A stretch of DNA of 64,000 bases from Candidatus Latescibacterota bacterium (GTDB taxonomy: Bacteria > Latescibacterota > UBA2968 > UBA8231): NCBI GenBank assembly GCA_965206595.1, contig OZ242214.1:2624001-2688000 (forward strand), read 5' to 3'. Position numbers and translations under genes: made by a program. How positions within the stretch are numbered: position 1 is the stretch's first letter; each line of letters starts with the position of its first letter. The notes under the pieces were generated by a model. It made no database searches and was not told where the DNA came from. It was given only the letters and a program-made list of their open reading frames with translations. Shown one piece after another: positions 10,477 to 34,089 of the stretch.

Positions 10477-10743
10477 ATGAACGCACGCCGACACCGATCC
10501 TCCATTCTCCGCCGCCCGCGGATTCCCGGGGCGGCTGCTGCTTGCGGGCTCTTCGCCGCCGGCATCCTCCTGGCCCCGGGTACCGCGGCGGCCGCGGAGG
10601 AAACCGGCTTCATCCTCAACACCTTCTCGTTCCTCGTCTGGGGAGCCCTGGTGATGTGGATGTGCGCCGGCTTCACCATGCTCGAGGCCGGATCGGTGCG
10701 CTCCAAGAACGCCTCGATGATCTGCCTGAAGAACATCGGGTAG
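10477..10743 (+). pseudogene. amtB: Ammonium transporter N-terminal fragment, truncated by transposon end
   Basis: LVMWMCAGFTMLEAGSVRSKNASMICLKN; the stop codon lies inside the TIR that starts at 10739. Confidence 0.88.
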
Positions 10744-10787
10744 TGTGTCAATCTGAAATAAATGCTTACCCAATCCAGTGAACAAAA

Positions 10788-10816
10788 TTGACTAATAATC
10801 TGTATAAGCGTATGTT
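10788..10816 (+). promoter_or_regulatory. Sigma70-type promoter
   Basis: TTGACT-17 nt-TATGTT; predicted start site ~10823-10824 coincides with the 5' end of a long RNA stem. Confidence 0.6.
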
Positions 10817-10823
10817 CTCATTC

Positions 10824-10961
10824 GGGACAATGGCCGTTTTCGAAAACCCGACTTGGTCGGGTGCAGTGGGGAATACGATACCTGTTGGTACCGGACCAGA
10901 ACATCGCGTAACCGGAGCCAAGGGAATACCCATAGAACAGCCGGTAAACGGCCGTTGTTCC
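10824..10961 (+). ncRNA. Candidate structured ncRNA (four-way junction)
   Basis: 16-bp closing stem 10824-10839/10946-10961 (two G-U); hairpins at 10846-10862, 10874-10910 and 10911-10945. Confidence 0.55.
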
Positions 10962-11034
10962 AGCGCCCGGCCTGTCTCATGCGGAGACAGCCGCCATACC
11001 TCCCACTTGGGACTGGGGGGAAGGGGACAACGAA

Positions 11035-11601
11035 ATGAGGCGCATAATTGCAGTAGTGTTCGGATTGGCACTATGGGGATGTGGCGATCAGACCCTATCT
11101 CCGGTAGCGCCGAAGCTTGTAGCAGAGGGAGATTCAACGGCAACAGATGCAGGAAACAATGCGGCACAGTGCGTCGTCGTAAATATTCAGGGCGACAACA
11201 TCCAAGTTCACGGAGCCTCGGATGTGAACATCGATACGGTAGCCGTGTCCACGGTAACGGACACCGTCGTAGTCCAAGCAGGGTTTTCGATGTTGTTGTT
11301 GGAGTTCCAGGGCTACAATGACAACAGTCTGGACTGGGTCTCCAATAGAGAAGGGTGGACTTACTGGGATGAGAGAATCTCGGAAGAGTCCGTACGTGGC
11401 GTGTTTATGGCTACTACCGAATGGCTCGAAGCCCCGCCTGCAGATTGGACGCCGTTCGATTCCTTTCCAGATGTGCAGGAAGAACATGAATTGACTGTTG
11501 GGGATGGTTACATCTTCGTCAAAGACCCCCAACAGGAATTTCAGCGTTACAGCGAAGGCAGCACGAGGATGGGTTACTATTTGGGGATTGTGCTATTTTA
11601 G
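11035..11601 (+). CDS. Hypothetical lipoprotein (transposon cargo)
   Basis: MRRIIAVVFGLALWGC lipobox. Confidence 0.7.
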   Translation: MRRIIAVVFGLALWGCGDQTLSPVAPKLVAEGDSTATDAGNNAAQCVVVNIQGDNIQVHGASDVNIDTVAVSTVTDTVVVQAGFSMLLLEFQGYNDNSLDWVSNREGWTYWDERISEESVRGVFMATTEWLEAPPADWTPFDSFPDVQEEHELTVGDGYIFVKDPQQEFQRYSEGSTRMGYYLGIVLF

Positions 11602-11612
11602 TAGGCAATGTC

Positions 11613-11657
11613 TAAGGTGCTTGCAGGGCAACGGTCTTTCCTCCTGCAAGCACCTTA
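11613..11657. repeat. Perfect 15-bp inverted repeat
   Basis: TAAGGTGCTTGCAGG (11613-11627) / CCTGCAAGCACCTTA (11643-11657), 15-nt spacer, abutting AAGGAG RBS. Confidence 0.85.
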
Positions 11658-11676
11658 AAAAGGAGAAAAGCAAACC

Positions 11677-11901
11677 ATGCCTAAGGGACCGAATGGACAA
11701 ACAAGGCCAGCAGGGGTCACTCAGTGTGCCGTGCACGTGGCCAGGATTGCCATTGGCGAAATCGAGGACACTGGTTACAAGCATCCTGTCCAAGCAGAGA
11801 ATGGAAGCAAGGGCGGGAAGGCTCGTGCTTCCATTCTGACGCCTGAGCGGCGTAGGGAAATTGCCAAGGCTGCTGCTGAAGCTCGATGGAAGACAACTTA
11901 G
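11677..11901 (+). CDS. Small basic protein of the type commonly found beside IS1-family transposases
   Basis: RBS AAGGAG; GSKGGKARASILTPERRREIAKAAAEARW motif. Confidence 0.75.
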   Translation: MPKGPNGQTRPAGVTQCAVHVARIAIGEIEDTGYKHPVQAENGSKGGKARASILTPERRREIAKAAAEARWKTT

Positions 11902-11904
11902 TTT

Positions 11905-12234
11905 GTGATTAATGAGGAAGGAAAAGAACGACAATTGATTTACGCCATTATTTCCCTCGACAACGAGAAATCAGAAGAAATCCATGAAGCAATTGCCAGC
12001 ATTAAATCGACTATCTCAGCTGAAACCGCAACAAAAAAATTCCGCCAAGTACAAAGCATTTATCAGCCTAATGACTTGCGTCATATCAGCTTTATAGCAT
12101 TTTCCGGCAGCGTAAATGAACTGTGCGACTTGCTTGGACTAATTGAAATAAAGCACCTTGCAGTTGCCTTAAGTCATATCGGAGGCAGGGGGTCAACCGA
12201 ATTGGTTAATTGGATAAAGGCATATAATGGCTGA
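11905..12234 (+). CDS. Hypothetical protein (cargo)
   Basis: Open AT-rich ORF packed between neighbours. Confidence 0.55.
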   Translation: MINEEGKERQLIYAIISLDNEKSEEIHEAIASIKSTISAETATKKFRQVQSIYQPNDLRHISFIAFSGSVNELCDLLGLIEIKHLAVALSHIGGRGSTELVNWIKAYNG

Positions 12235-12505
12235 CGGACAGGAGTTTGGTGGGGGGACAAAGAAGCTTACTGAAGGCGGAAGGGTCAATATAGAACTTAT
12301 TGAGCATCGGGTAAATGAAATCGCTAACGACACAAAACAGCAAGGAAAAGAAATCAATTCGATCAATATAATTGTCACAGAGATTAAGACGGGGATGATT
12401 ACGAGAAAGGAGATTTTTACAACTGGAGTTATCATTATGGCAAGTCTTTTGATCGCTGTTTTTGCAGCGTTCGTTGCCATTTTCTTTCAGAAAATAACCG
12501 CATAA
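12227..12505 (+). CDS. Hypothetical protein with coiled-coil-like segment and C-terminal TM helix
   Basis: Overlaps upstream stop; hydrophobic GVIIMASLLIAVFAAFVAIFF tail. Confidence 0.6.
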   Translation: MADGQEFGGGTKKLTEGGRVNIELIEHRVNEIANDTKQQGKEINSINIIVTEIKTGMITRKEIFTTGVIIMASLLIAVFAAFVAIFFQKITA

Positions 12506-12508
12506 CCC

Positions 12509-13414
12509 TCACGAAAACACCAAATCCTCGTCGTTGTAATCTCTTTCTCGCTTCTTGTATTTCTTCGGACGCTTTGGCTTCGGCGTCCGCTTGTCGATCA
12601 GCCCCACAATCCATTCCAGGCTCTTCTCTTCCTTGGTCAGCCCCGCTGCAACTGCTGGTGTGGTTTCAAGAGTCATGTGCGGCCGTACCCAGTTGTAGTA
12701 GGTGAAGAATAGGTGGAGCATATACCTGTGGTTCTCAAGTTTCTTTGAGAACCCGTTTGTCTTTCGTGTATAGCGGCGCATACCCATACGCATGGTAAGG
12801 TTCATGCGCTCAACGTATGATGTGCCCCCTTCTTCGCTGTCGCCGATAACGATCACCTTTTCGGTTTCCGTTACGGTGGAGTTGCTATATCCTGCTCCAT
12901 CGTCGTACCCGTACGACTTCACAAGTTGGGTATAGTTGACGCGGTTCCCGAATGTACTATGGACAGCCTCGGGGTAAGCGCCAAAGGCATCGGATGTGAT
13001 TTGGACCTTGGGTTTTCGGGGCAGGATGATCTTCCCCTTCAACTTACCCATGAAGCGTTTGGCCGTTGTCAGGTTCCTGCCACCAACTTCCCAAGCAATC
13101 ATCAACTTGGTGTCGGGATCGAGTGCCGTCCATGTCCAAATGCTTCCAGCCTGAGAAGGCGCGGCTTGCGCTTGCGGGACATTCTTCTCTTTGGCATGGA
13201 GAAATGACCATATTTCATCCAATTCTACGCGCGCACACCTGATTCGGCGTGCATGCACTGCCTCATAGATGCTGCAAGCCTTCCCCGCATCTACGAGCAG
13301 TTTTACCACCGAATTGACAGCACAATCAGCCGACCTGGATATGGAGCGGATCGATGCACCTTCTACCAGCATGGAGAGGATGGTAACTCGTTTATCTATT
13401 GACAGTTGTTTCAT
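12509..13414 (-). CDS. IS1-family DDE transposase
   Basis: N-terminal HTH (EGASIRSISR), VELDEIWSF, WTALD, ITSD, TSYVERMNLTMRMGMRRYTRKTNGFSKK; ATG 13414 after AAGGAG. Confidence 0.88.
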   Translation of the reverse strand: MKQLSIDKRVTILSMLVEGASIRSISRSADCAVNSVVKLLVDAGKACSIYEAVHARRIRCARVELDEIWSFLHAKEKNVPQAQAAPSQAGSIWTWTALDPDTKLMIAWEVGGRNLTTAKRFMGKLKGKIILPRKPKVQITSDAFGAYPEAVHSTFGNRVNYTQLVKSYGYDDGAGYSNSTVTETEKVIVIGDSEEGGTSYVERMNLTMRMGMRRYTRKTNGFSKKLENHRYMLHLFFTYYNWVRPHMTLETTPAVAAGLTKEEKSLEWIVGLIDKRTPKPKRPKKYKKRERDYNDEDLVFS

Positions 13415-13492
13415 TTCGTTGCTCCTTGACGTTAGTGAACAAAAAGGATACATTTATACACTATCAAAGGCCGAGGCATAGAAATGCCTCGT

Positions 13493-13584
13493 TGGCGGCG
13501 AGGGTGGGATTCGAACCCACGATGCCTCTCCCGAGACATGCCTGATTATAAGTCAGGTGCGTTTATCCACTCCGCCACCTCGCC
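13493..13584 (-). tRNA. tRNA with UAU anticodon (reads Ile AUA) on a serine-type class II body
   Basis: GGCGAGG/CCTCGCC acceptor stem, G73, encoded CCA, anticodon arm CCTGA-CTTATAA-TCAGG, 7-bp variable arm ATGTCTC-GGGA-GAGGCAT, T arm GTGGG-TTCGAAT-CCCAC. Confidence 0.93.
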
Positions 13585-13625
13585 CTTTGTCCCGCCGATT
13601 GCAGTCGGCGGTGATTCTTCCTGCT

Positions 13626-13657
13626 ACGGCGTCCCGCCAATCTCGGCGGGACGCCGT
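13626..13657. repeat. Perfect 13-bp hairpin in the tRNA leader region
   Basis: ACGGCGTCCCGCC-AATCTC-GGCGGGACGCCGT; a second hairpin CCGCCGA-TTGCAG-TCGGCGG lies at ~13592-13611. Confidence 0.8.
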
Positions 13658-13750
13658 TCTGTTTTTACCTGAACATAAATATACGAAATTTTCTGCTTAG
13701 CCGGAAGGGATTTCTCCCCAGGTTGGTTTACATAATGTGTCGATCTGGAC

Positions 13751-13789
13751 AAAAAAGAACCCGGCTCTTCACTGAGAGTCGGGTTCTTG
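13751..13789 (-). terminator. Rho-independent terminator of the SLATT-like gene
   Basis: AAGAACCCGACTCT/AGAGCCGGGTTCTT stem followed by a T run on the minus strand, just after the stop at 13808. Confidence 0.7.
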
Positions 13790-13807
13790 CGAGTGGAAGC
13801 AAGGATT

Positions 13808-14332
13808 TTAGACTGACTGACTTTCCTGTGCAACAAGAGTGTGAGGTCGGATGTCCCATAGCTGCTTGAATAGCCTTTGGTACCAACTCACCTTGGGAAA
13901 CTCACTTGGGTCGTTGCCCTGCGCTCGCATCATTTCAATATGACAGACTATATCCAGCACACGGAGTGGCTGAGGCTCCCTTGACTCGATGGCCAGCCGT
14001 TGTGCTGTGATGTCGGCCAGGAACCCTTGCAGATCGTCATCCTGCAAGTTTCTGCTTCTTTCCATCTGTTGTTGAAGTTGAATGAAGCCCTGCTTGAGTT
14101 CTCCGTGCAGCAAGGCTTTTTCGTTTACCCTGAAGACGAGCATGAATCCTAAAAGAGCAGCACTTGCCACAGAAATCGCATGGTGGCCTTCTATTACGGC
14201 ATAGATAGACAGCATAAAGGCGCCAAATAGAAACCAGTTATGCGCGGCCCTGAGAAAGGATTCGCGGTACGTATGATACCGAATAGATCGGCAGATGCCG
14301 AAATGGAGATTGTGGTAAACTGTGTCAGTCAT
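13808..14332 (-). CDS. SLATT-like two-TM protein
   Basis: RSIRYH..R..F, two TM helices, EKALLH..LK..F..L helical C-terminus; ATG at 14332. Confidence 0.6.
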   Translation of the reverse strand: MTDTVYHNLHFGICRSIRYHTYRESFLRAAHNWFLFGAFMLSIYAVIEGHHAISVASAALLGFMLVFRVNEKALLHGELKQGFIQLQQQMERSRNLQDDDLQGFLADITAQRLAIESREPQPLRVLDIVCHIEMMRAQGNDPSEFPKVSWYQRLFKQLWDIRPHTLVAQESQSV

Positions 14333-14513
14333 TTCCCTTCTTTTTTGGTGGGGGAGCCGGAGGTAATGTGTCGGAGATTGGCTCGGGGGCAATGTCGTCC
14401 CTAACTGCTCTCTTTTCTTGTTCCTCCGTGAGGATTTTTCTTTCTGTATCTGGCCGAGAAGGTGCAGGCTGCGTATCGGGTTTGGGTTCGGATGATCTGC
14501 GCTTGGATGCCAT
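14325..14513 (-). CDS. Small Pro/Lys-rich peptide overlapping the start of the SLATT-like gene
   Basis: 62 aa ending PPAPPPKKKGND; stop overlaps downstream start. Confidence 0.5.
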   Translation of the reverse strand: MASKRRSSEPKPDTQPAPSRPDTERKILTEEQEKRAVRDDIAPEPISDTLPPAPPPKKKGND

Positions 14514-14754
14514 TTCCCTTTTTCCTTAGTTCAATGACTGCTGAGACTGTTCACCCGGAAAATACTGAAAGCCTGCAACGGTGCAAAGAAGTTTCCTCTC
14601 CCCAGTCCCCCAAGGGGATTATTGGAGGGGTTAGCCCTCAATTCTGGGTGGGCGATCCGTCACCAGAAATGGTGACAGAATTTCAGACTGATACACTACC
14701 CCGCATTCTTGGTCAGCACCTGCACCTCATCTTACGGACCTTCTCAACATCCTT

Positions 14755-15132
14755 GGTGGGAAGGAATCGAACAAGCATCAGGACAAGAAGCTGAACGCCG
14801 GACGCGGGACCGTCGGCAAGCAGGCGGTCGTCGGGATCCGCAATCGCAAGACGAAGGAGATCCGGGCGGAGCTGGTCGGCGATACCAAGGCCGACACCCT
14901 GCAGAGCTTCGCGGCCGATTTCGTCGAGCAGGAAGCCGTCAAGTACACGGACGAATCACCGTCCTACGGGGGCATGAAGAACCACGCCAGCGTTAGCCAT
15001 TCCACCGGTGAGTACGTTCGCGAGATGGCCCACATCAACGGGATGGAGTCCTTCTGGGCCACGTTGAAGCGAGGCTACGCCGGAACCTTCCACCGTCGGC
15101 CGGCGAATTCATTAACGGACTTAATCCAGTAG
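14755..15132 (+). pseudogene. IS1595-family transposase internal fragment
   Basis: Not in the ORF track; frame from 14755 reads GGKESNKHQDKKLNAGRGTVGKQAVVG...YTDE...VSHSTGEYVREMAHINGMESFWATLKRG. Confidence 0.85.
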
Positions 15133-15134
15133 AT

Positions 15135-15347
15135 TTGGCAGAGTTAGATTCTGAGCTACAAAAGAGGAAGAGAGCGAGGAAAATGACGAATGAAGAAATA
15201 GGCAGCGCTGCAGAATCAGCGCTTCACCGTCGAACCAAGGCCAAGCGGATTTCGGAGATCTCCCGGTTGGTCAGTGCTCTCCGTGAGGCCCGGAAAGATT
15301 TCGACCAAGCTAATCAGCGCTTGGCTGACCTCGGATATCCTATCTGA
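15135..15347 (+). CDS. Hypothetical protein (IS1595 cargo)
   Basis: Short helical ORF following the transposase remnant. Confidence 0.4.
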   Translation: MAELDSELQKRKRARKMTNEEIGSAAESALHRRTKAKRISEISRLVSALREARKDFDQANQRLADLGYPI

Positions 15348-15350
15348 TCA

Positions 15351-15513
15351 CATGAGCCAGGATAATCAGAAGCAGCAGAAGCAGAAGCCAGGTCGCCCCG
15401 AGCGCCTCATGTCATTCGACGGCACCGCGGAGGAGTTAGCCCAGGCGCTGTTCGCCCGGGCCCGAAAACCTGTCCGGCCTAAGCAAGAGCAGGAGGATGA
15501 GACTGAGAAATGA
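15351..15513 (+). CDS. Small hypothetical protein (IS1595-associated)
   Basis: MSQDNQKQ...GRPERLMSFDGTAEELAQALF; start approximate. Confidence 0.45.
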
Positions 15514-15528
15514 TCAGGGGAGGGTACT

Positions 15529-16119
15529 TTGGCGCGTAGAGCGGATCAAACGAAAGGCGTCTTTTGCCTTGAAACGCATAAGTGGTTTAACAGGAAGGAT
15601 GAGACCACGATTGAGCCCATCCTGGATCTACTGCGAAAACAGCAGGGGAGGAATTGGTCTTACCGCTACCGAGATGTCGCTACGGAAGCTGAATTCCGGT
15701 TCTTTCTTGGGGAATACCTGACACCCATATACGATAGCTTTCCCGTTCTGTACCTGGGATTTCATGGCGAAAATGATAGCATTATCCTTGCGGACAAAAC
15801 GGTCATGTCGCTGGACCGAATCCGACTCGCAATAAATGGCCGGTGCAATGAGCGGGTAATATACTTCGGTTCCTGCGGCACCATGAGCGTACATGGCAAA
15901 CGGCTGAAGTCGTTTTGCAAATCGACTGAGGCGCTAGCCGTATGCGGATTCAAGGAAGAAATCGATTGGTTGCAGGGGGCGGCCTTCGAGCTTCTTATCC
16001 TGGGAACGCTTCAGAGCGTGCCGTTTACTAAGGAGGGGATGGAAGAATTCGACCAACGCCTGAAGGCGCAATCGCCCGGTCTATACAGAAATCTCGGGTT
16101 CCGCTTGGAGACGGCCTGA
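15529..16119 (+). CDS. DUF6642-like protein (caspase/CHAT-like His-Cys pattern)
   Basis: GVFCLE, IEPILDLL, LYLGFHG, IYFGSC, VCGF...DW. Confidence 0.65.
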   Translation: MARRADQTKGVFCLETHKWFNRKDETTIEPILDLLRKQQGRNWSYRYRDVATEAEFRFFLGEYLTPIYDSFPVLYLGFHGENDSIILADKTVMSLDRIRLAINGRCNERVIYFGSCGTMSVHGKRLKSFCKSTEALAVCGFKEEIDWLQGAAFELLILGTLQSVPFTKEGMEEFDQRLKAQSPGLYRNLGFRLETA

Positions 16120-16142
16120 GCGCAGAACGTGCACATGGCGGC

Positions 16143-16184
16143 GTAAACCGGCGGGGAGCCGGTTTACCATCGTATATAATTCCC
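16143..16184 (+). mobile_element. Probable IS1595 right end preceded by a hairpin
   Basis: GTAAACCGGC/GCCGGTTTAC hairpin, then GTATATAATTCCC, after which the type ISP fragment starts abruptly. Confidence 0.5.
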
Positions 16185-17095
16185 TTCGGAAGCCTATCGC
16201 ACAACCAAGCGCGTGCGCCGGCCCGAGGGGCAGGGGCTGAACGATCCCTACGTCAGATTCTTCCGCATGGCGGAACGGCGCATCGCCGAGAAGACGGGCC
16301 AAGGCGTGGTCTGTTTCATCTCCAACTATATCTGGCTCGACGGGCTGTCCTTCACCGGGATGCGGGAGCGCTACCTCGAAGCGTTCGACGCCATCCGCGT
16401 CGACTGCCTGAACGGCGACAAGTACAAGACCGGCAAAGTGGCGCCTGACGGCTCCCCGGACCCGAGCATCTTCTCCACCAAAGGCGATCCAGTCGGTATT
16501 CAAGTCGGAACTGCGATTACGACGCTGGTACGCAAAGCCGATCACGCCCCGGCCACCGAGATCGGCTTTCGCCATCTCTGGGGACAGGCCAAGCCTGCGG
16601 AGTTGACGGCGACAGCGGAGAAGGAACCGGACGCGCTCTACGACTCCATCGAGCCAGTCTTGCCGCTTGGTTTGCCGTTCGCACCAACTGCTGCAAGCGA
16701 GGATTGGTTCGGCTGGCCGGCGTTGCCAGATCTGTTCCCGGTTTCGTTTCCGGGCGTCAAAACCAGCCGCGACGGATTCCTTGTCGATACCGATCTGGAC
16801 CGCCTCAAGGCGCGCATTACCGAATACTTCGACGAAACTCTGAGCCACCATGAGATCGCCCGGCGCTACCCGGCGGTGATGAAGAGCACGGGACTATTTA
16901 ACGCCCGTGCGGTGCGCGATGCGCTGCTAGAACGGGGTGGACCGAATCGATTCTGGATTCATCCGCTTCGCCTATAGGCCGTTCGACAATCGCTGGCTCT
17001 ATTGGGAAGGGGAGAGCGCCCTGCTTGACCGCCCCCGCCTCGACTATCAACCGCATGTGTTCGGGGGGAATTTGTGGCTGTCTGCCGCCGAATCG
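16185..17095 (+). pseudogene. Type ISP-like restriction-modification enzyme fragment (MTase C-part/specificity domain)
   Basis: LNDPYVRFFR.AERRI, GVVCFISN..WLDG.SF.GMR, GIQVGTAI, YRPFD.RWLYW; frameshift ~16945; truncated at both ends. Confidence 0.8.
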
Positions 17096-17226
17096 GCCCC
17101 TCAATACGTCCGTCCGAAGCCGAAACGATGGCCGACTCCAGAGTTTCAGGACGGTGGTTCACGAACTCCTGGATCCACCCGGAGGCTTCCGCGTTCTCCG
17201 CGTTTCTGGGGGTACCTGGACATTAC

Positions 17227-17480
17227 CTACTCCCCATCCTGTCCGCGGGGAAGTCGTCCGCAAACAAGGAAGGAAAAGTCGGGCAGGTTCACCCAATCGT
17301 CCCGATTGAGATCAAATTGCCGGGGGGTGGTCCCGAAGGCGTCGGCGAATAGGAAGAAGTCGGCCAAATCCACATGGCCATCCTGGTTGAAGTCCGCCTG
17401 GGTCGGCCAAGTAAGCCCGGATTCTATCCCGTCCGTCACGGTGGCCACGTAGCCCCACTGGGCCAGAACATACTCCGGTC
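17227..17480 (-). pseudogene. Dockerin/EF-hand-like C-terminal remnant of a secreted protein
   Basis: ADFNQDGHVDLADFFLFADAFG...FDLNRDDWVNLPDF. Confidence 0.6.
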
Positions 17481-17904
17481 GTCGAAGGTTACCAATTCCC
17501 CCTCGGGATTTACATCGACAGTCACCCCGACCTCCCTGTAAATCCGGTAGCCGTCGGCGCCCGGGACCGAAAACCGAGTCATCCGCACTCGTCAAAAGGA
17601 TGAACGTCATTTCGGTTTACGGTGCTCCACAACTTGGCCCGCGACCCCGCCTCGACGGGAGGGCGGCGGCGGCCTTCCTTCGGAACGCCAGCGTCCTCCG
17701 TGAAACTTTGGGGAAACGAAAAAGGGATTGTCAAACTGGTGTTTGACAAACGGGCGTTTCCAATAGGTCAGCGGATCCCGCTACGCCGAAAAATAGTCTC
17801 CTGCTTGCCTCCCCCAACCCGGTAGTGGTGAGCCTAAGCCTTCTGAGCGGTCGGGTACATCCTTTACACCAGCGGATGCCTCCCTTGCTACTGACCCGCC
17901 GTAC

Positions 17905-18180
17905 CGCCCTGAGGTGCGTCCAGGGCTTGGCACCCCAGCAGGAAGCGGCTGTAGCCATCGACGACGGTCAGCGGGTAGCAGTAGCGGCCATCCAGGGTCT
18001 TGAACTGCCCCTTGGTGGGCTCGCAGAACTCGGCCGGCGCCGAGTCCGCGGCGTAGACACGAGGCCATTGCGTTTGAGGATGCCGCAGACGGTGGTGCCG
18101 CCGGCCAGGGGCGATGCGGCTGCGACCGCTGCAGGAGAGCCAGCAGCTTCTTGGCGCGCCCCATGTCGTGTGTTTTCGGC
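17905..18180 (-). mobile_element. IS481-family transposase remnant
   Basis: KGQFKTLDGRYCYPLTVVDGYSRFLLGCQAL and GRAKKLLALL...PWPAA segments. Confidence 0.7.
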
Positions 18181-18354
18181 GCGCCTAAGGTGGGCGGAAC
18201 TGTAATCTCGCTAAGGGGAAGAAATTGGTCAGTCGAATCGAGCGATTTGCAGACCACTGGGACCAAAACGCTCGCTCCTTTGTCCAGAGGCCCACAGCAG
18301 ATCCGGATAAAGATCAAATGACTTAACACACGAATCTCGGCGACGAGACACTAG

Positions 18355-19730
18355 CCGGACCCTGCCCCGTTTCCACACCCCGTTCATCGAACCCAGCGGG
18401 CGGGTTTCCCGCACTGGGCTCTCGGACGAGATCATGCCTTCGCCCACGGAAAGCGGGTCGTGCGCGGTCCAAGGCGAGTCAGCCCGTGGTCTTGCCACAG
18501 GTACCGGTCCGGGAAGCGCACGTATTTCCCGCCTCCCACCTTGTGCTTACGACACAGCCACTGGCGCAACCGCCGGGTCGCGTGCCGGTCCACCGCGGCG
18601 TAGGCCGGGCTCACTTGGCCCAGGATGAAGTAGTTCGCCCACCCGGTCATGAGCCGGTTGAGGCGACCTACCACCACCTCCGGGGCCAGCAGTCCGGATC
18701 CCCGCGCGGTCAGCTCGCTGAGCCGGCGGCAGAGGCTTCGGACGCTCGCCGCGCTCGGGCGCGTGCCCAAGTAGGCCCGACCCGTGTCCCGGCGATAGAT
18801 GCGTCCGATCCGGTAGCCGAGGAACTCCATCGCCTCCTCCGGCACCCGGTAGCATCGGGTTTTCTCGGTGTTTATCGGCAGTCTCAGTTGCGCCATGAGC
18901 CGCTCGACCGCCGCCCGCATCGTGGCGGACGGGGCTTGGCCGAGCGCCCGGACGTCATCGGCGTACACGACGATCTCCGTCTGGAAGCGCCGGGCATAGC
19001 CCCGCACCTTCCAGCCGAGAATGAAGCGACGCAGGTAGATGTTGCTGAGCAGCGGAAAGATCGGCGCCCCCTGCGGGGTCCCTTGGCGCTCTCGACGCGC
19101 CCGGTTCGTGCGGCGGGTGCCGCCTTCCCCGTCGTCTTCCTCTACCGCCATCTCCAACCACGCCTTGATCCAGCCCAGCAGGCGCCCGTCGCTGAGGCGG
19201 CGGGCCAGGGACTTCATCAATTCCGCGTGGGGGATCTGGCCGAAGTAGTCCGACAGATCCGCGTCGACCACCTCCCGGTGGCCCGTGTTCAGCAGCCGAT
19301 GCACGCGCTGAACGGCGTCCAGCGCGCTGCGGCCCGGTCGATAGGCATACTGTCCGGGGGCAGGTCCGCTTCGAAAATCGGCGACAACACCATCATCGGC
19401 GCCGTCTGCGCTACCCGATCCCGGAGACAAGGGATGCCCAAGGGCCGGTACTTCCCACGTTGCTTCTTCGGAATCAGGACCTGCCGTACCGCCTGCGGCC
19501 GGTAGGTCCCTTCCTTCAGGTCCCGCGCCCGTTCCCCAAGCCACCGCTCCACTCCGTACGACTCGACGTCCGCTACCGTCTTGCCGTCCACCCGGCGGCG
19601 CCGCCATTACCGCGGACCTCCTGCCAGGCGACGGCCAGTACATCGGCGCGCCACACCTTGTCGCACAGCGAGTAGAATCGGAAGCCGGGAGCTTCCTTCG
19701 CTTTGGCATGTAGCGTCGTCTGGAAGCGTG
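18355..19730 (-). mobile_element. Degenerate group II intron: frameshifted RT/maturase plus domain V and partial domain VI
   Basis: AKAKEAPGFRFYSLCDKV, RPLGIPCLRDRVAQ, GTPQG, YADD, GWANYF in shifting frames; DV GAGCCCAGTGCGGGAAACCCGCCCGCTGGGTTC at ~18389-18421. Confidence 0.88.
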
Positions 19731-19731
19731 A

Positions 19732-19800
19732 TAGCCGGCGTAGTCCATTTTATCCCGGTTGTTGCGGGCGTAGCCCAGTTCGGTGGTCGCCTGGGGATGG
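19732..19800 (-). mobile_element. Short transposase-like remnant (ISKra4/ISLre2-like)
   Basis: ELGYARNNRDKMDYAGY abutting the truncated intron. Confidence 0.4.
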
Positions 19801-20330
19801 CGCGGTTGACCAGGTCGGGAGACTATGAGACAGATCGTTCGACACCTCGACATACTTCGGACCCTGCAAGCCCAGCGCCACGGTATGAATTTGGAGGAGG
19901 TCGGGTTTCTGCTCGACCAAACCCGGCGGGACGACCAGCACGTCTACTACCAGCTACAGAAAGAGGCGGGGATGCCGCTGAACTTTCCTGTCATGGTCGC
20001 GTCGATGCGCCCACGATGACATCGCCACTTCCACCAGTTGCGGCGCACGTTCAGGACCGACTTCATCGTCAAGCGCAACCTGCGCCCCCCAAATCGAAGT
20101 AGACCTGGCTCGAGGAGCTAACGACCACAAAGGAGCTTACCTGCCTTGACAGAGGGCTAAGAAGGTGCCTCCTTTCCCCAATATACCGGTCGGGTCTAAA
20201 GGGCTTCGGTCAAGCCGGGAACGCCGATGCAGGCTTGGAAGCTTTGTTGCAGGTGTGGGCGATACGGCCGTTTACGTCGCGGCGATCTAGGCGGACGACC
20301 TCGCCGCCGCCAGCGTAGGATCATGCTCTT

Positions 20331-20525
20331 ATGAACTGGTGTCAGCTACTGAACTCCTTACGACGCCGACAGACGACAATTTCGAGCGGTCCCCGCAGTG
20401 AATTCCAACGAGACTTCGACCGCTCGGTCTTTTCGACGCCAGTAAAGCGCCTGCAGGACAAGGCTCAAGTCTTCCCGCTGGAGGCGCACGACGCAGTGCG
20501 CACTCGCCTGACCCATTCGCTCGAG
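20331..20525 (+). pseudogene. dgt: dGTP triphosphohydrolase N-terminal fragment
   Basis: RSEFQRDFDR.VFS...KRLQDKAQVFPL...VRTRLTHSLE, then IS3 sequence. Confidence 0.85.
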
Positions 20526-21141
20526 CATCAATCGGGCGATGCGCTTGGGACTGACGCCGGGCCCCTCCTCGGCCAGTTCGACCCGTATCCTAGGCGCCCC
20601 GTAGGTGCCCCGAGAGCGTGGGTGGATCTGCTCGACGCGCCCCTTGAGCACGGCATCGGCTCGGGTGCCCGACGGCGGGCGTTTCAACCAAGCGTAGTAG
20701 CCGCTGGGGAGACCTTCAGCACGCGGAACATCGTCAGCACCGGAAAGGGGCTTGGTGCGCTCTCAGGAACTCGTAGACTGGCCGGACCCCGAGTCGGCCT
20801 CGGGAGCGAACCACGCCGTGGCTTTTGCCAAGATCTCCCGTTCTATACGCAGTTGCTTGTTCTCACGGGGAAGGCGCCGCAACTTCTCCTGCTCCGTACT
20901 GGAGGGCCCGTCGCGGCGCACCCCCTCGTCGCGTTCGGCCTAGATCACCCAGTTCCGGATCGTCTGCCCGGACGGCTCGAATTCCTTGGCCAGCGCTTCC
21001 GGGCTATACGACCCACTCGTACGAGTTCCACCATCTGTTGCCGGGTTTCCGGTGGATACGGACCATGTGGTTTCGACATGATTGGACACCCTCCTTTCCC
21101 TCTCCAAGAAATGAAGTGTCCACGAAATCGGGTCAACTCCA
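20526..21141 (-). mobile_element. IS3-family remnant (orfA + start of orfB)
   Basis: End TGGAGTTGACCCGATTTCGTGGACAC at 21141; PYPPETRQQMVELVR, YGAPRIRVEL, frameshifts and stops. Confidence 0.85.
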
Positions 21142-21163
21142 GGTAGTATGAAAAGGCTGACGC

Positions 21164-21502
21164 TTGGAACTCGCTTTCGAATCAAGGCAGCTCCGTTTGA
21201 TCTGTGAGAACGAAGCTTTTGCTAAGGAGCATCTTGGACTTGAGGTCGCTGCAGTTCTCAAACATCGCTTAGCGGACCTACGTGCTGCTAGTTCCATTGC
21301 TGACCTTATGGTGGGAAATCCTCGTCGACTTGCAACTGGAGCCCACAACTATTTGGCAGTGGACCTATGCCAAGGGTATCACATCCGTCTCACTCCGAAT
21401 CACCCCAAGAATCCGGTAAGCGTTACGGATGACCTTGACTGGAAAAAGGTTACCCGGATCAGGATAACTCACATACAGAGAGGGGATCATGACCAATCCT
21501 GA
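21164..21502 (+). CDS. HigB-like (RelE-fold) toxin
   Basis: LAFESRQLRLICE...RLADLRAA...DWKKVTRIRI; overlaps downstream antitoxin. Confidence 0.75.
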   Translation: MELAFESRQLRLICENEAFAKEHLGLEVAAVLKHRLADLRAASSIADLMVGNPRRLATGAHNYLAVDLCQGYHIRLTPNHPKNPVSVTDDLDWKKVTRIRITHIQRGDHDQS

Positions 21503-22604
21503 AGGATTCCGGCCTGATTGGATCTCTGCACCAGGGGATACCATTTTAGACATTCTGGAGGATCGGGAGATTTCACAGGAATCGTTTGGGAAGAGTATGG
21601 GCATCTCTAATTTGGAGACAAATTACCTTCTCAGCGGCCGCTCTACGGTAACAATGGCGATTGCTCGTCGGCTCACGAGAATACTCGGAGCTTCTGTAGA
21701 ATTCTGGATTACCCGCGATTTCCAATTTCGGCAAGATGCCAAACCCATAGAGGATGAGGAAGAAAATTGGCTTCGGCAACTTCCAGTGGGAGACATGATC
21801 AAGTTTGGATGGCTAGAACCGCCACCTCATCCATCAGAAGAATTCGAGGCGTGCAAAGCATTCTTCGCGGTGTCTAGTGTCCGTGAATGGCACCAGTATT
21901 ATGGAAGCCCCAGAGAAATGGCGTCCTATAGATCTTCGCCTTCCTTTGAGTCGCACCAAGGAGCGTTGGCAGCTTGGCTTAGGCAAGGCGAAATCCTGGC
22001 TACCAAGATTAACTGCCAGAAGTGGCACGCGGATAGATTCCAGAAGTCCTTAGCCAGAATTCGTGTGCTTACGCGCCAAAAAGACCCGAGTCGGTTTGTC
22101 CCACAGTTGCAGGAAGCGTGTTCGGAAAATGGAGTAGCCACGGTAATCGTTAGGTCGCCCAGTGGTTGCCGGGCAAGTGGTGCTACCAGATTCTTATCTC
22201 GAAACAAAGCTATTCTCCAACTCAGTTTTCGTTACCTAACGGACGATCAATTCTGGTTTACTTTTTTTCACGAGGCAGGTCATCTCCTGCTGCACGGGGA
22301 GAGGCGGTTCTTCTCAGCAACACTAGGAGACGAGAAACCTTGGATCTTAGAAGGTTTCGAGATGCCAGTCGCTGCGGGAGAAGAAGAAGAAGAAGAAGCA
22401 AATCAATTTGCCGCCGACAATTTAATTCCTTCGGAATTCCAGAGAAACCTTCTCTCGCTTCCTCCCGAGTCGAAAACAGTGCTCCGATTTGCCCGTCGCG
22501 TGGGGGTATCCAGCGGAATCATAGTAGGACAATTGCAGCATCACGGCCGAATCGGCTACGACCAGATGAACAGGCTCAAGCGGCGATTTGTATGGCAGGA
22601 TTGA
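21489..22604 (+). CDS. HigA-like XRE antitoxin fused to an ImmA/IrrE metallopeptidase domain
   Basis: SAPGDTILDILE HTH; DQFWFTFFHEAGHLLLH (HExxH); EEEANQFA. Confidence 0.88.
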   Translation: MTNPEGFRPDWISAPGDTILDILEDREISQESFGKSMGISNLETNYLLSGRSTVTMAIARRLTRILGASVEFWITRDFQFRQDAKPIEDEEENWLRQLPVGDMIKFGWLEPPPHPSEEFEACKAFFAVSSVREWHQYYGSPREMASYRSSPSFESHQGALAAWLRQGEILATKINCQKWHADRFQKSLARIRVLTRQKDPSRFVPQLQEACSENGVATVIVRSPSGCRASGATRFLSRNKAILQLSFRYLTDDQFWFTFFHEAGHLLLHGERRFFSATLGDEKPWILEGFEMPVAAGEEEEEEANQFAADNLIPSEFQRNLLSLPPESKTVLRFARRVGVSSGIIVGQLQHHGRIGYDQMNRLKRRFVWQD

Positions 22605-22605
22605 A

Positions 22606-23532
22606 CTAGCTGCGGAAGGGGATGAATCTGTGAGGGCTCTTCTGCCAGTTACAGAGAGCGTCCTCCAAGACCTGCATCCCGAGATTCAACTCGGACCCTA
22701 ATTCGACCAGCCACTGGTTGATTTGGGCTGGTGTTGCAGGGGTTCCGAACAAGAGACGGGCGCCCCGGATCGGGCCAGTCGAATTCTGAATGTACGGGGA
22801 GTCCGCCTCAACATTGGCTAGTCCTAACTTGCCTAACATGGTCAAATAGTCGAATCGAGCGGTCCTACCGAAACTAGCGATTTGCTCCATGCTGTGGTAA
22901 AGCTCACGGAAGGCCACCCGTGGAGACCCACGGGCATTCTGGAGGACTTGGTTCATTAGTCCCTCGTGGGTTCTGGGAGGCCCAACCCACTGAACATATG
23001 TTTGAACGGCGGCGCCAGTTCCGGTGGGGGAGTATGCATCGAGGCTTTGATACTTTCGATGGTTGCCAAACCCACCGGAGATTCTCAATGCATCTTGGTG
23101 GGAGGCTAACCACGCTCGAAAGCGGGCTGGATCGGCACTTGTGGTAGCCCAATCCCATCTGTGAGGTCCCCCAAGAGCGCCGTATACTTCGCGCGCATAC
23201 CGCCAGCCGCCTCGTTTATGTTTTCCGAAATGGACGAGGAAAAACACCATCCAGAAGGCTTCCTCCGTTTGGCCTTGGCGGTGAAAAACGATTGCGGCCC
23301 TCAGAGGGTCAAAATAGCCAGGATTAGAGGGTTCTGAACGACGTTGGGAAATGTCCCTTGTTCTGAGGACCGACACGAATCGGACGCGCCTTGTGCTCTC
23401 GATGACCTGGGCGACAAAGGATTCACGATGCGCGAGGTCTGCCAAGCCTAGAAGTTGGCGGCTATGCCGGTGAAACGCAGCTAACTGGTGGGAAAGTCGC
23501 TGCGCTGCGTGGCGGTCACGGGGCCTAATCAT
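22606..23532 (-). CDS. Alpha-glutamyl/putrescinyl thymine pyrophosphorylase clade 3-like protein
   Basis: FDPLRAA, FGNHRKYQSL, FGRTARFDYL, GPIRGARLLFG, LEDALCNWQKS; ATG 23532 overlaps upstream stop. Confidence 0.75.
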   Translation of the reverse strand: MIRPRDRHAAQRLSHQLAAFHRHSRQLLGLADLAHRESFVAQVIESTRRVRFVSVLRTRDISQRRSEPSNPGYFDPLRAAIVFHRQGQTEEAFWMVFFLVHFGKHKRGGWRYAREVYGALGGPHRWDWATTSADPARFRAWLASHQDALRISGGFGNHRKYQSLDAYSPTGTGAAVQTYVQWVGPPRTHEGLMNQVLQNARGSPRVAFRELYHSMEQIASFGRTARFDYLTMLGKLGLANVEADSPYIQNSTGPIRGARLLFGTPATPAQINQWLVELGSELNLGMQVLEDALCNWQKSPHRFIPFRS

Positions 23533-24356
23533 TCCCTTTCCTCGATCATCCGGGCGATCCAATCGCCGATTGCGAGAATGACCTCCTTTGTGACGCCAAA
23601 ACTGCTCTGAAGGTTATGGTTAAAGCCGAGAATAGAAAGATCGCGGTCAAGGGGAACCCCGCAAACGTCACTTATAACGCCTGTATAAGCGATACCTTTC
23701 ACCTTGTGACCTGAAGCTCTTCCTAAAAACCAATCTGGGACGACTTCTGCTGTCAGGCAAGACCCCGAAAGAGATTGGAAACCCCTTACGACGGAAGTGC
23801 CATTTAGGATTAGAGTCCGAACCGAGGAATCCCGAAGAATAGTAGCCAGGGTGTCTCCAGCTAGGGTAAGGAGTAGGGAGCGCTGTTGGTTAGGGAGATC
23901 CGCCCATTTGCTTAGTGTTGCATAGGGTACTAGATCTAGATGGCAAGCGTTAAATAGAGGTGGATAGTAGGAGACTCTAGCACCCCTAAGTATTGAGTCC
24001 AGCTTTTTGAACCAGACATCATAAGGATTGGAGGCAAAATAAGATCGGTAAGACTCAAGAATCGATTCAAGATGCCTAGCGTCGGCATCAGCCCAAGTCT
24101 GTAACCCCAGGGAGGCAAGGGTTGGAAATCTGCGGAGTTCTCCCTTCAACTCATTACCTGAGGCATCCATGAATTCCCGGGAACTAGGATTAATACCTAT
24201 AGTTGCTAGCTGGGGAGTGGACAAATCTCCGAAGGAAATAACCGGACAACTCCAAGGTATGATGCCGGCCTGAGTAGTCGTAGGCCTGTCGAGGTAATCT
24301 ATCAACTTGGCTGCGGCCGAAAGCACCCCATGAGGAGTCCGCCTAGGGGAGATCAT
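23529..24356 (-). CDS. Hypothetical protein, probable uracil-DNA-glycosylase-like fold
   Basis: PVISFGD...LATIGINPS..EF, HLDLVPYAT..W, LILNG. Confidence 0.55.
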   Translation of the reverse strand: MISPRRTPHGVLSAAAKLIDYLDRPTTTQAGIIPWSCPVISFGDLSTPQLATIGINPSSREFMDASGNELKGELRRFPTLASLGLQTWADADARHLESILESYRSYFASNPYDVWFKKLDSILRGARVSYYPPLFNACHLDLVPYATLSKWADLPNQQRSLLLTLAGDTLATILRDSSVRTLILNGTSVVRGFQSLSGSCLTAEVVPDWFLGRASGHKVKGIAYTGVISDVCGVPLDRDLSILGFNHNLQSSFGVTKEVILAIGDWIARMIEERE

Positions 24357-25084
24357 GTTAAGCGATTCATGTTAAGCGGTTATGGAGTCTGGTAATGTAA
24401 GGGTGGTAGACCTCTGAAGACATTTCCCCTTTTAGGTGTGAAATCTTCTTAAGATTATGGTCTTTGTAAGCTCGAAAGACCAAGAGCAGCCTAATGAGAT
24501 CGGACCAGTAAGAGGGTATAGTGTCAAGGGTGTTTGAGTCAAATTGCCCTTTAATCCTGATAGCGCGTTCTGCGGCGAGCACGAGGTCAATTGCTGCCTG
24601 GGGGTTTCCTTCGGGCATAGGCTCCATCACGTTCTGGGTAGGTTGCCAGCCCTCTTGGAGGAACCTTGTGGCCATTTCCTCATTTTTTGTGTACAAGTGG
24701 AGACTGCCGACCATGTGTTTATATCTCCCGAGGTTTGCAGAGAGAGTGCGGGCGATGATTTCCTGGATCATGGTAAAACAGAAAATGTCGTGAGGTAAAC
24801 CAACGTAAGCGTCGTTAGACCTCATGTGGGTAATCATCTGAAGGTGGTTGCGTCGGAGCATGAATTGGAGAGTACAGGTACACGGAACGTCCTTGTGTGG
24901 TACCAAAAGGTCATTTGCATCGAACAATTGAACTACCGCTTGTCGGGATTGGGGTTTCCGACGAAGAATAGTAACTACATTCTCAAACTGATTGAGCCCG
25001 CGCCAGTTGAATAGTCTTGGGCCGTAGCCACCAAAGAGCGTGGTTCCTTCTGCGTGCAATTTATAATCGGGGATGTAGTAGGAT

Positions 25085-26944: not shown

Positions 26945-27664
26945 AGGATATGAAATCAAGTTCATTGGTGCCCGCCAAATACCATAGCAACTCACCCAAA
27001 CAACTGAAGGGTTTCCCTTTGGTCTCCGTCCGACTAATTCGGGCCAATGGATTTGAGATCTCAATGAGCGCGCCCGTTATTTCCTTCGCTTGGCCCTTGG
27101 TCGGTTCGATGAGTTCTCCGGATGACAGTAGCTCCTTAATGGCTAGCCGCATTACGTCGTCAAGAGTGTCGCCCGAGAAAGAGTGTGCGTCCATTTTGGC
27201 CCCTTTGGAGTGATCGGGGGTCTTTTTTGGACCGAGTCCGCTGGGCATTTACCACCGGGATAGGTTTGTGGTCAAAGGGCCAATCCTTGAGTACAAGGGA
27301 AGAGAAATTTCGTGACTACCGCTATGGGGATAGACACAAGGAGGAATCCAATGACGGACCCCGCGATTGATGCAATTAGAGGCTCTGATAACATCTCGGT
27401 CTTCTCCCTTTGGTTTAGTGGTGAGGTTGGAATGTTTCTCCGTGTTTGAGGTGAGATCCTTTGAATATAGCTCGGACTGGGGGTCGTCCCCCAAGTCTGT
27501 GGGGTCTGGGGTCTGTTGTTCCCGCTAACTCGGGCGGAGGGCGCACACTTCTCGCACTCGACGAAGCTACCACGCCAACCCCACCCCGCGCTGCCGCAGA
27601 TCCTCGCGGCGGCGCCCGTAATCCGGCATGATCCCCCCAAAGCGCCAATAACCGCATTTGGGCT

Positions 27665-28953: not shown

Positions 28954-29283
28954 AGCTCCCCACTGCCATCAGTTTTCTCCATCGTTCCCCCCTTCTTTGC
29001 CATCGCCGCACATCCGGCATTCGACCTTCAGGTTCTTGAACGCTCTGTCTGTCTCCCATCGCCTGGGAATGTCCAGTTTCCAAATCCCCTGCTCTTGCCT
29101 CCAGCTCCAGGATTCGATGCCGACATGCAACATCGTCATGTTGCCGACGAACAGGGCCTCTGGTCCGCTGGCCCAACAGCCAAGGTAAGGGGGCAGTTCG
29201 AACGGGTACTGCTCCCGGTCGGGCGCAAGAATCCAGCTGACGGACAGGGGTTCCTTTGCGCTCCCGCAGGTCTCGCAATGGAA

Positions 29284-29520
29284 TCATGCATTCCTAAGCT
29301 TCTTTCCTCGCAACCGCTGGAATATCTGATCCCATTCCTCCCTCAGAGTCGCCGCCATGGCCTCTCGCTCTTCGTCCTTGGCGACCTCTGACAGTTCATC
29401 CCACACCCTCCTGCGTTCCTCCTTCTCCTTCTCCTGTTTCTCCTTCACGACCTGCCGGACCAGGAAGCCAACGCCAATGACGCCAGCAGCTCCGATCCCC
29501 GCCAGGATGGTTATTATCAA
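29284..29520 (-). CDS. Small single-TM coiled-coil protein
   Basis: Hydrophobic N-terminus followed by a charged helix. Confidence 0.45.
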   Translation of the reverse strand: MIITILAGIGAAGVIGVGFLVRQVVKEKQEKEKEERRRVWDELSEVAKDEEREAMAATLREEWDQIFQRLRGKKLRNA

Positions 29521-33393: not shown

Positions 33394-33394
33394 G

Positions 33395-33587
33395 CAGTTC
33401 GCGGTGCTGTACGGCATCGGCCCTGGTTCTCTACAGCGAAGAGGTGGAAGTCGATGGAATGGTTCAATTCTCTCAAAAAAACCATCTGTGGCCGGAATTT
33501 CGGCGAATACGGGGTATGCGATTGGGGCATGGCAGGACATCCTCCTTCTTTTCTCAAGCAATGAATGAAGTTTCCACAAAATCGGGT
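33395..33587 (-). mobile_element. IS3-family left-end remnant
   Basis: MPQSHTPYSPKFRPQMV and an end similar to 21112-21141. Confidence 0.6.
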
Positions 33588-34076: not shown

Positions 34077-34089
34077 CCCGAAAGTGTTT

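Follow-up and report, generated by a model that had tools for sequence, protein, structure and literature searches.

The closest described relatives of the tRNA reported here are the allo-tRNAs (Mukai et al. 2017, NAR; PMC5389517), which the accessible part of that paper defines by an 8/4 or 9/3 acceptor/T branch and a tRNA-Sec-like D arm with a long stem and a tetraloop. According to the same partial text, 8/4 and 9/3 allo-tRNAs with serine identity inserted serine at leucine codons in Escherichia coli, those with a UAU anticodon were inactive when assayed, and the search pipeline began from a tRNA-Sec model, so that species with a canonical fold may have been missed. Natural tRNAs in which body and anticodon disagree are rare windows on the drift of the genetic code and on cellular tolerance of deliberate mistranslation. 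Our study concerns a 64,000-nt stretch of a Candidatus Latescibacterota genome (assembly GCA_965206595.1, contig OZ242214.1, positions 2,624,001 to 2,688,000; hereafter the window, meaning the whole stretch analysed), which encodes a 92-nt tRNA with a serine-type body and the anticodon UAU. This tRNA folds 7/5, whereas the Ser-accepting allo-tRNAs in the available text of PMC5389517 fold 8/4 or 9/3, a contrast already drawn in an earlier reading made from the letters alone (the sequence-only reading). We found it to belong to a scattered group of 7/5 serine-type tRNAs with non-serine anticodons that travel with transposases and RelE/ParE-type toxin–antitoxin genes, the fold of the group being fully canonical. 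This raises the question of whether anticodon-blind tRNAs serve mobile elements as a means of reading, or of poisoning, the rarest codons of their hosts.

ARAGORN called exactly one tRNA in the window, on the minus strand, with the anticodon tat at position 35. It scored 64.8 bits against the Rfam tRNA family RF00005 (E 8.2e-12) and 94.3 bits against our own covariance model, and its minimum free energy (MFE) fold is a cloverleaf with a 7-bp acceptor stem, a 3-bp D stem, a 5-bp anticodon stem with a 7-nt loop, a 7-bp variable stem with a 4-nt loop and a 5-bp T stem, none of them disrupted. The fold has an energy of -39.1 kcal/mol, shuffled sequences averaging -29.7 (z -3.09), and was equalled in stability by 1 of 200 shuffles. 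The acceptor and D-stem pairs include G1-C72, G2-C71, C3-G70, G10-C25, C11-G24 and G12-C23, with G13 facing A22; the universal tertiary positions (U8, A14, G18G19, U33, the T loop UUCGAAU and A58) are all there, and G15 stands with C48. A single unpaired C44 precedes the variable stem and a single C48 follows it, G73 is followed by an encoded CCA, the two strands of the D stem enclose 11 nt (GAGUGGAUAAA) as in tRNA-Ser, and the anticodon loop reads C32-U33-UAU-A37-A38. Every structural feature that the sequence-only reading had listed was thus recovered, at the positions given there, by ARAGORN, Rfam, folding and inspection. Redrawing the fold as 8/4 was ruled out, as U8 faces C65 and the acceptor stem is not extendable. 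A 5,524-nt contig from run X1 showed 0 differences over window positions 12400-14500, although X1 may be the source sample and is therefore not independent support. None of the runs listed for the sequence was an RNA run, and in one guessed to be RNA, coverage was limited to the T-arm region common to other tRNAs.

Bacterial seryl-tRNA synthetase (SerRS) reads the long variable arm together with acceptor features and ignores the anticodon, and the identity elements of tRNA-Ser comprise G73, G1-C72, G2-C71, C11-G24 and G15-C48. With the anticodon masked, nhmmer profiles scored the window tRNA at 47.3 bits for serine against 22.1 for leucine and 21.6 for tyrosine, these class-II profiles being home-made and small (20 Ser, 8 Leu and 4 Tyr sequences) and the serine set being dominated by relatives of the host. 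Within the host genome, a single contig of 7.05 Mb with 63.7 % GC and 53 tRNA calls by ARAGORN, the best match was tRNA-Ser(GGA) at 71 % identity. The T arm (GUGGGUUCGAAUCCCAC) and the layout of the variable arm are common to the UAU tRNA and the host tRNA-Ser(GGA) and tRNA-Ser(CGA), and the serine-type junction, in which the variable stem is flanked by one unpaired base at either end, is present as in the host tRNA-Ser(GGA). The host tRNA-Leu genes have A73 and two bases ahead of the T stem, and the host tRNA-Tyr has A73. Judged on these features and scores, the body is of serine type, as the sequence-only reading had held, and not of isoleucine, leucine or tyrosine type. Its anticodon is nevertheless not that of a tRNA-Ser, which would be NGA or GCU, and its class-II body and G73 are not those of a genuine tRNA-Ile(UAU), which has a class-I body and A73.

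The host encodes one SerRS (genome positions 2845048-2845359 and their flanks), with an N-terminal arm domain, and keeps both TilS and a CAU tRNA of the Ile2 type. Its standard system for decoding AUA as isoleucine is therefore intact, in line with the normal AUA decoding assumed earlier, and the UAU tRNA would compete with that system rather than replace it. Two further host calls by ARAGORN, a 99-nt tRNA-Ser(cga) at C1:4181416-4181514 and a 97-nt tRNA-Ile(gat) at C1:5418288-5418384, have no normal T loop or CCA and are probably false positives.

The tRNA lies in DNA that two genomes of the same genus do not share. Window positions 345-10740 and 34254-40000 are collinear with both, and there only about 7.5-8 kb lies between the flanks, so that the intervening 23.5 kb of the window is strain-specific. 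The GC content of the 10-16 kb part of this block is 49-57 %, compared with about 65 % outside. Among 40 relatives from the same genus, family and class, no match to the UAU tRNA was found that was both full-length and closely similar; the matches were mostly 29-35-nt pieces of T arm and acceptor, and the longest, at 71-74 % identity, resembled ordinary tRNA-Ser genes. The window tRNA is 77-79 % identical to UAU tRNAs in records titled Verrucomicrobiales, Thermodesulfobacteriota, Alphaproteobacteria and Terriglobia. On these comparisons (a block absent from two congeners, low GC, and a tRNA closer to UAU tRNAs of four other phyla than to any tRNA of the host), the UAU tRNA is foreign and was probably acquired horizontally.

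The tRNA is not singular, as was seen in a scan of one genome from each of 185,579 species for a pattern of UAU loop, long variable region, T loop, G73 and CCA. The scan gave 74 matches in 73 loci, 32 of which were other canonical-fold, long-arm tRNA(tat) genes of 85-96 nt by ARAGORN, the rest being 3' pieces of tRNAs or matches by chance. Going by record titles, 22 of these 32 loci are Acidobacteriota-type, a phylum to which we take the names Angelobacter and Acidiferrum to be assigned; the other 10 are titled Chloroflexota, Acidovorax, Marinobacter, Alphaproteobacteria, Thermodesulfobacteriota, Nitrospina, Ignavibacteriaceae, Verrucomicrobiales, Binatia and uncultured archaeon, and at least nine phylum-level groups are represented on this evidence. 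An alignment of 31 sequences was made from the window tRNA and 30 loci, two copies identical to that of L073 being dropped. In it, 96 % of stem cells pair, compensatory changes occur in 15 of 19 pairs, and none of 500 shuffles reached the observed covariation score. With the anticodon masked, the serine profile was best for all 30 distinct UAU sequences, that of the window included, and these carry G2-C71 in 28 cases and C11-G24 in 22. TilS was retained in all five other carriers checked. When the same pattern was run on viral contigs, 15 matches were returned and none was a real long-arm UAU tRNA.

An any-anticodon pattern (middle A or U) was also run over 401 Acidobacteriota genomes, where it found clear Ser-type mismatched tRNAs in two, one with UAU and one with UAA, a result that does not establish a preference for UAU. 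It further returned Asn(GUU) tRNAs with a long arm, situated in large arrays of irregular tRNAs. In two Acidobacteriota genomes, 14-18 tRNA genes are packed densely into about 2 kb (L201:75-1960 and L202:63-2249), and many of these genes are irregular, 89-nt long-arm tRNA-Asn(GUU) and tRNA-Ile(GAU) among them. Separately, a Binatia genome was seen to have a long-arm tRNA with the anticodon UUA (L094:2342 onward), for which the leucine profile was best, adjoining its Ser-type tRNA(UAU) (L094:2604-2694).

The company kept by the group was surveyed by clustering the open reading frames (ORFs) within 4 kb of each UAU tRNA and scanning them against Pfam and NCBIfam. A transposase was present in 19 of the 32 loci (IS1-like in 4, IS1595 in 9 and IS5-like with SWIM in 6), and either a transposase or a RelE/ParE toxin–antitoxin module in 22. 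The Pfam tally over 150 neighbouring ORFs was headed by IS1595 (8), HTH_3/HTH_31 (5), DDE_Tnp_1 (4), Gp49 (4) and DUF3467 (4), and no aminoacyl-tRNA transferase family appeared among the 25 families listed in it. Exceptions to this company are the Acidovorax UAU tRNA, which lies between housekeeping genes, and the Verrucomicrobiales copy, 38 nt upstream of cas8g. At L087:4854-7172, the UAU tRNA with the closest similarity to that of the window stands 38 nt upstream of a type I-G cas8g, which is followed by a Cas_GSU0053 gene.

In one Acidobacteriota genome the tRNA(UAU) is demonstrably part of a mobile element. A 2,533-bp repeat (L073:1802-4334, also L044 and L055) is present there in three copies of 99.9-100 % identity and consists of a 174-aa ORF-A of no known family, a Ser-type tRNA(UAU) and an IS5-like DDE transposase with a SWIM finger, with a 15-bp subterminal inverted repeat. 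Transposases of this kind accompany six loci from four genomes, with the tRNA placed 8-26 nt after an ORF-A of 145-174 aa and 23-59 nt before the transposase. Relatives found via the transposase alone, and hence without anticodon bias, occurred in 10 of the 401 sampled Acidobacteriota genomes. Six of nine distinct near-full-length copies had a class-II tRNA directly upstream, with the anticodon UAU, UAA, CAA, CCA or UUA (relatives L178, L179, L183, L184 and L188), which argues that this IS family carries a tRNA as a standing component in which the triplet is swapped. The five unbroken tRNAs, the UAU copy included, all keep C32-U33-NNN-A37-A38, and this constant loop around a changing triplet points to decoding-competent loops with swapped anticodons. 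The UUA (ochre) tRNA has A73 and a Leu-type score, and that of L179 has 23 extra bases in the anticodon loop.

Four of the 32 loci carry a RelE/ParE (HI1419-type) toxin gene, an HI1420-type antidote gene and a DUF3467-like gene, starting 115-125 nt downstream of the tRNA. In each of them one palindrome occurs twice, at some 20 nt ahead of the tRNA and directly in front of the toxin gene; its sequence is GTAGCTTNNAAGCTAC in three loci (L054, L082 and L096), whereas L057 has another palindrome. This repetition suggests that the tRNA in these loci may be under the operon's own operator. A DUF3467 query for relatives of these modules found one in 1 of 401 genomes, with no tRNA there, and was uninformative.

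The gene next to the window tRNA encodes a distantly IS1-like DDE transposase, which matched Pfam DDE_Tnp_IS1 (3.2e-8), rve_3 and HTH_38, as well as NCBIfam IS1 at 68.7 bits, under the 100-bit cut-off. An IS1-like transposase follows the tRNA by 40-140 nt on the same strand in the window and in four loci (L079, L083, L050 and L053; tblastn-supported), L086 having been rejected as an IS1-like locus since it clustered there only through an ORF overlapping the tRNA. The tRNA is intact where the adjacent transposase has decayed (L050 and L053), and several of the tRNA-linked IS1-like genes are split or truncated. By tblastn, the window transposase is single-copy in its genome, with one further weak match only, and it has at least 593 metagenomic relatives. 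No tRNA was present within 400 nt upstream in 76 of the 80 closest of these; the remaining four have tRNAs 128-184 nt upstream on the same strand (L110:1709-2332, L132:2017-2372, L145:2240-2316 and L150:311-385), partly irregular, with the anticodon ACU twice, one C33, and a Leu-type UUA suppressor further upstream. In close pairs of IS1-like relatives, similarity extends no further than 0 to 65 nt ahead of the start codon (20-65 nt for the three pairs whose match goes beyond that codon), so that the upstream tRNAs lie outside the IS1-like element. The transposases linked to a tRNA(UAU) are scattered over a quick tree, on which they require 3 changes and 387 of 500 shuffles do as well, and no convincing terminal inverted repeats surround the tRNA and transposase within the window. 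The possibility that the UAU tRNA is an integral part of the IS1-like family was rejected on the upstream survey, the scatter and the boundary test. By sequence comparison, the window tRNA is a neighbour of the IS1-like gene rather than an established passenger. The earlier suggestion of a mobile tRNA stands in so far as it concerns strain-specific, low-GC DNA beside a transposase, but not as movement with the adjacent IS1-like gene, the relatives of which argue for a position of the tRNA outside the element.

The IS1-like relatives (L097-L154) also have a conserved block about 50 nt upstream of the transposase start, made up of a palindrome (TGCTTGAC.CTAAGCA) and a motif (AAAGTTCATAT), and many of them end at GGTAGTGTCTCA, stop codon included; the window copy has neither this block nor this end. 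Contigs of 151 nt identical to parts of the transposase (window 12595-13446) were present at depth 2 in two runs with a different study and organism label, which implies that the same element occurs elsewhere at low abundance.

The features of the window, together with the palindrome regions of the toxin–antitoxin loci, are listed below. The neighbours of the tRNA comprise the IS1-like transposase, ORFs of no known family, DUF6642, fragments of a type ISP restriction enzyme, the reverse transcriptase of a group II intron, an aGPT-Pplase3 enzyme and an M78 peptidase. The aGPT-Pplase3 and amino acid:DNA transferase families are, we presume, linked to phages. The 194-aa ORF upstream of the tRNA had no Pfam, NCBIfam or PADLOC match. 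Pieces of the intron match and of the reverse transcriptase/maturase ORF are repeated many times in both congeners. The hairpin downstream of the tRNA begins one base past the CCA end; an eighth pair, C-G, would extend it to 13473-13492, and GCCUUUG follows.

Table. Coordinates of the UAU tRNA, its neighbours and the palindrome regions (window positions unless a locus is named)
Feature	Position	Strand	Basis or remark
Class-II (long variable arm) tRNA, 92 nt, serine-type body, anticodon UAU, G73, encoded CCA	13493..13584	-	ARAGORN, Rfam, cloverleaf MFE, Ser profile, own covariance model
Anticodon U34 (13550), A35 (13549), U36 (13548) in loop CUUAUAA	13548..13550	-	Sequence reading, ARAGORN
Hairpin, 7-bp GAGGCAU/AUGCCUC stem, 4-nt loop, possible weak tRNA terminator	13474..13491	-	Sequence reading; putative function
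Two GC-rich hairpins (13592-13611, 13626-13657) directly upstream of tRNA 5' end	13592..13657	.	Read as terminators on + strand
DDE transposase, 301 aa, distantly IS1-like, start 78 nt downstream of tRNA, same strand	12509..13414	-	Pfam, NCBIfam
194-aa ORF of no known family, upstream of tRNA	13808..14392	-	BLASTP homologue near UAU tRNA of L086: 31 % identity, E 9e-27
Strain-specific block	10741..34253	.	Synteny with two same-genus genomes; composition
DUF6642 protein	15529-16119	+	
Type ISP C-terminal specificity domain	16213-17452	+	Weak match below cut-off (E 0.003)
Reverse transcriptase/maturase ORF, 473 aa	18432-19853	-	
M78/IrrE-type peptidase	21489-22604	+	
318-aa protein, thymidine hypermodification families	22606-23562	-	Matches to aGPT-Pplase3 (5e-96) and amino acid:DNA transferase (1e-65)
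Group II intron D1-D4-6 match	34063-34219	-	70.1 bits
Palindrome regions of toxin–antitoxin loci	L054:400-660, L082:6200-6450, L096:4325-4700, L057:1925-2180		

On balance, we favour the view that the window tRNA is a horizontally acquired, SerRS-charged decoder of AUA and the canonical-fold counterpart of the published 8/4 allo-tRNA(UAU). A serine-type class-II tRNA whose anticodon had changed to UAU would have been acquired horizontally into strain-specific mobile DNA. As SerRS ignores the anticodon, the single SerRS of the host should charge it with serine, and the charged tRNA would compete with the resident lysidine tRNA-Ile2 in reading AUA, and possibly some AUG, the outcome being codon-specific substitution of serine for isoleucine. 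This reading is favoured because the fully canonical fold of the group offers nothing structural against use by SerRS, EF-Tu or the ribosome, and because serine-inserting allo-tRNAs exist. To the element, such a tRNA might be worth having as a host-independent rare-codon reader, chargeable in any host, or as a mild RNA toxin; it could also serve as an addiction factor or in defence. The defence role proposed in the sequence-only reading drew no support from PADLOC, which had 0 matches for five window neighbours of the tRNA.

Several results weigh against the AUA decoder. By crude ORF calling, ATA is the fourth rarest sense codon in the host, yet some 7,966 ATA codons (3.84 per 1000) are spread over 3,248 of 4,534 long ORFs, and efficient insertion of serine at AUA would be costly for the host. 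AUA, expected in the sequence-only reading to be rare in a high-GC host, is thus not negligible there; the four island ORFs called have 5-15 ATA per 1000. Nor do the elements appear to read their own genes differently. The window transposase encodes the invariant Ile68 of its DEIWS motif with ATA, and its ATA codons align with I, V or T in relatives. Likewise, the cognate codons of the IS5-like elements align mostly with the standard residue, with serine in one cell only: where the anticodon is CCA, six of the element's seven TGG codons align with Trp in all four relatives compared, while TTG codons align mostly with L, and ATA codons with I, L, V, Y or F. We accordingly rejected the idea that the element's genes use a private code, since cognate codons sit at conserved standard residues, the DEIWS Ile among them. 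The ATA excess in tRNA-linked transposases is weak, with 3 such codons in that of the window and 3 in that of L079, whereas 18 GC-matched relatives average 0.83 and 3 of these relatives also have at least 3. Furthermore, the interval from the upstream hairpins to the tRNA contains no sigma-70-like site, the closest one (13832-13805) being upstream of a terminator-like hairpin, and the conservation of UAU within the group carries no evidential weight because the search pattern imposed that triplet.

A bolder reading, which we regard as possible but advance only tentatively, makes swapped-anticodon Ser-type tRNAs (for AUA, UUA, UUG and UAA) dedicated parts of selfish elements, with the window's a live copy in a closed genome. 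They would act as codon-specific RNA toxins or recoders that any host charges, because SerRS ignores the anticodon; their targets would be mostly codons rare in GC-rich hosts or a stop codon, and they would be built into the IS formed by ORF-A, tRNA and SWIM-DDE transposase and into toxin–antitoxin operons, where one operator would control both tRNA and toxin gene. A less probable alternative to the AUA decoder is a tRNA-shaped RNA that does not decode and would be of other use to the mobile or toxin–antitoxin element, whether in processing or punctuation, in regulation, as a decoy for toxins that attack tRNAs, or as a molecule that is charged but left unused. In the available part of PMC5389517, six variants of allo-tRNA(UAU) converted to CUA were inactive in E. 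coli translation and two were lethal, a result that also tells against the AUA decoder, and G-1 tRNA1 species were charged yet unused. A non-decoding role would suit the tight packing of the tRNA between ORF-A and transposase in the IS5-like elements, the one relative with an enlarged anticodon loop, the standard residues at the elements' own cognate codons, and the shared palindrome, which suggests co-regulation of tRNA and toxin as parts of a module. However, none of the canonical features for tertiary structure and decoding (U8, A14, G18G19, U33, A37, T loop and CCA) is missing from the window tRNA, and the relatives recovered without anticodon bias keep the canonical 7-nt loop while the triplet alone changes, which would be needless for a structural or processing element.

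A neutral hitch-hiker, in the form of an unexpressed or decaying tRNA-Ser paralogue in junk mobile DNA, seems improbable. The UAU tRNA occurs once, in an island that is a mosaic of transposase, intron and restriction-enzyme fragments, no promoter was identified for it, the neighbouring transposase has a long terminal branch (1.45 against a median of 0.29 in the quick tree), and, as noted, several tRNA-linked IS1-like genes are broken, all of which would fit such decay. The tRNA itself has no broken stem, its 30 divergent relatives are equally intact with compensatory changes, and it persists beside decayed transposases; moreover, any serine anticodon requires at least two substitutions to become UAU. 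That the molecule is a genuine isoleucine tRNA(UAU), charged by IleRS and with an incidental long variable arm, we consider very improbable. ARAGORN names it Ile, from the anticodon alone, and U36, A37 and A38 of the anticodon loop would suit t6A37 and IleRS contacts. Against this stand G73 in place of A73, the class-II body, G15-C48 and the lead of the serine profile by 25 bits, and the TilS kept by the host and by the five other carriers implies that no replacement decoder of AUA as isoleucine is needed. The SerRS-charged AUA decoder remains the reading we prefer, and it is the one compared below with known systems.

The window tRNA shares with ordinary bacterial tRNA-Ser the whole body, that is, the variable-arm geometry, G73, G1-C72, G2-C71, C11-G24 and G15-C48, and its T arm is that of two host tRNA-Ser genes. 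It differs in having UAU in place of NGA or GCU, in C3-G70, in its 71 % identity to the nearest host tRNA-Ser and in its foreign DNA. The tRNA-Ile(UAU) of Mycoplasma mobile and some other bacteria likewise reads AUA with UAU, with a class-I isoleucine body that is charged by IleRS. That tRNA replaces the lysidine system, whereas TilS is retained in the host of the window tRNA. The nematode nev-tRNA-Ile(UAU), as described in the accessible parts of PMC3333845 and PMC4300185, also joins a class-II body to the anticodon UAU and is charged according to its body and not its anticodon, but it is eukaryotic and its leucine-type body is charged with leucine. Another natural bacterial tRNA with a mismatch of body and anticodon is the tRNA-ProX of Streptomyces and Kitasatospora; in the available text of PMC11415595 it differs in its class-I proline body, its Ala, Asn or Thr anticodons and its occurrence in Actinomycetes, and that text mentions no connection with mobile elements. 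The same 2024 review has, in its available text, no occurrence of allo-tRNA, UAU or transpos-.

A literature search that covered few subscription papers found no paper on tRNASerUAU or its variants, and nothing closer than allo-tRNA(UAU) on mistranslating or suppressor tRNA, mobile elements, transposase and AUA. As far as the accessible portions of PMC5389517 and PMC7609411 describe it, allo-tRNA(UAU) resembles the window tRNA in its long variable arm and G73 (G73 or U73 being required of an allo-tRNA), hence a presumed serine identity, and in its non-serine anticodon. UAU is the commonest anticodon of the allo-tRNAs, which come mostly from Acidobacteria and lie beside transposon-related and toxin–antitoxin genes, as the window tRNA, with its transposon neighbourhood, and its group do. 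In contrast, the window tRNA has a 7-bp acceptor and a 5-bp T stem in place of the 12-bp 8/4 or 9/3 branch, the D arm of an ordinary tRNA-Ser in place of a tRNA-Sec-like one, and no destabilised stems. What is most novel, at the level of the group, is that Ser-type tRNAs of canonical fold, with swapped anticodons, are built into an insertion sequence and into toxin–antitoxin operons.

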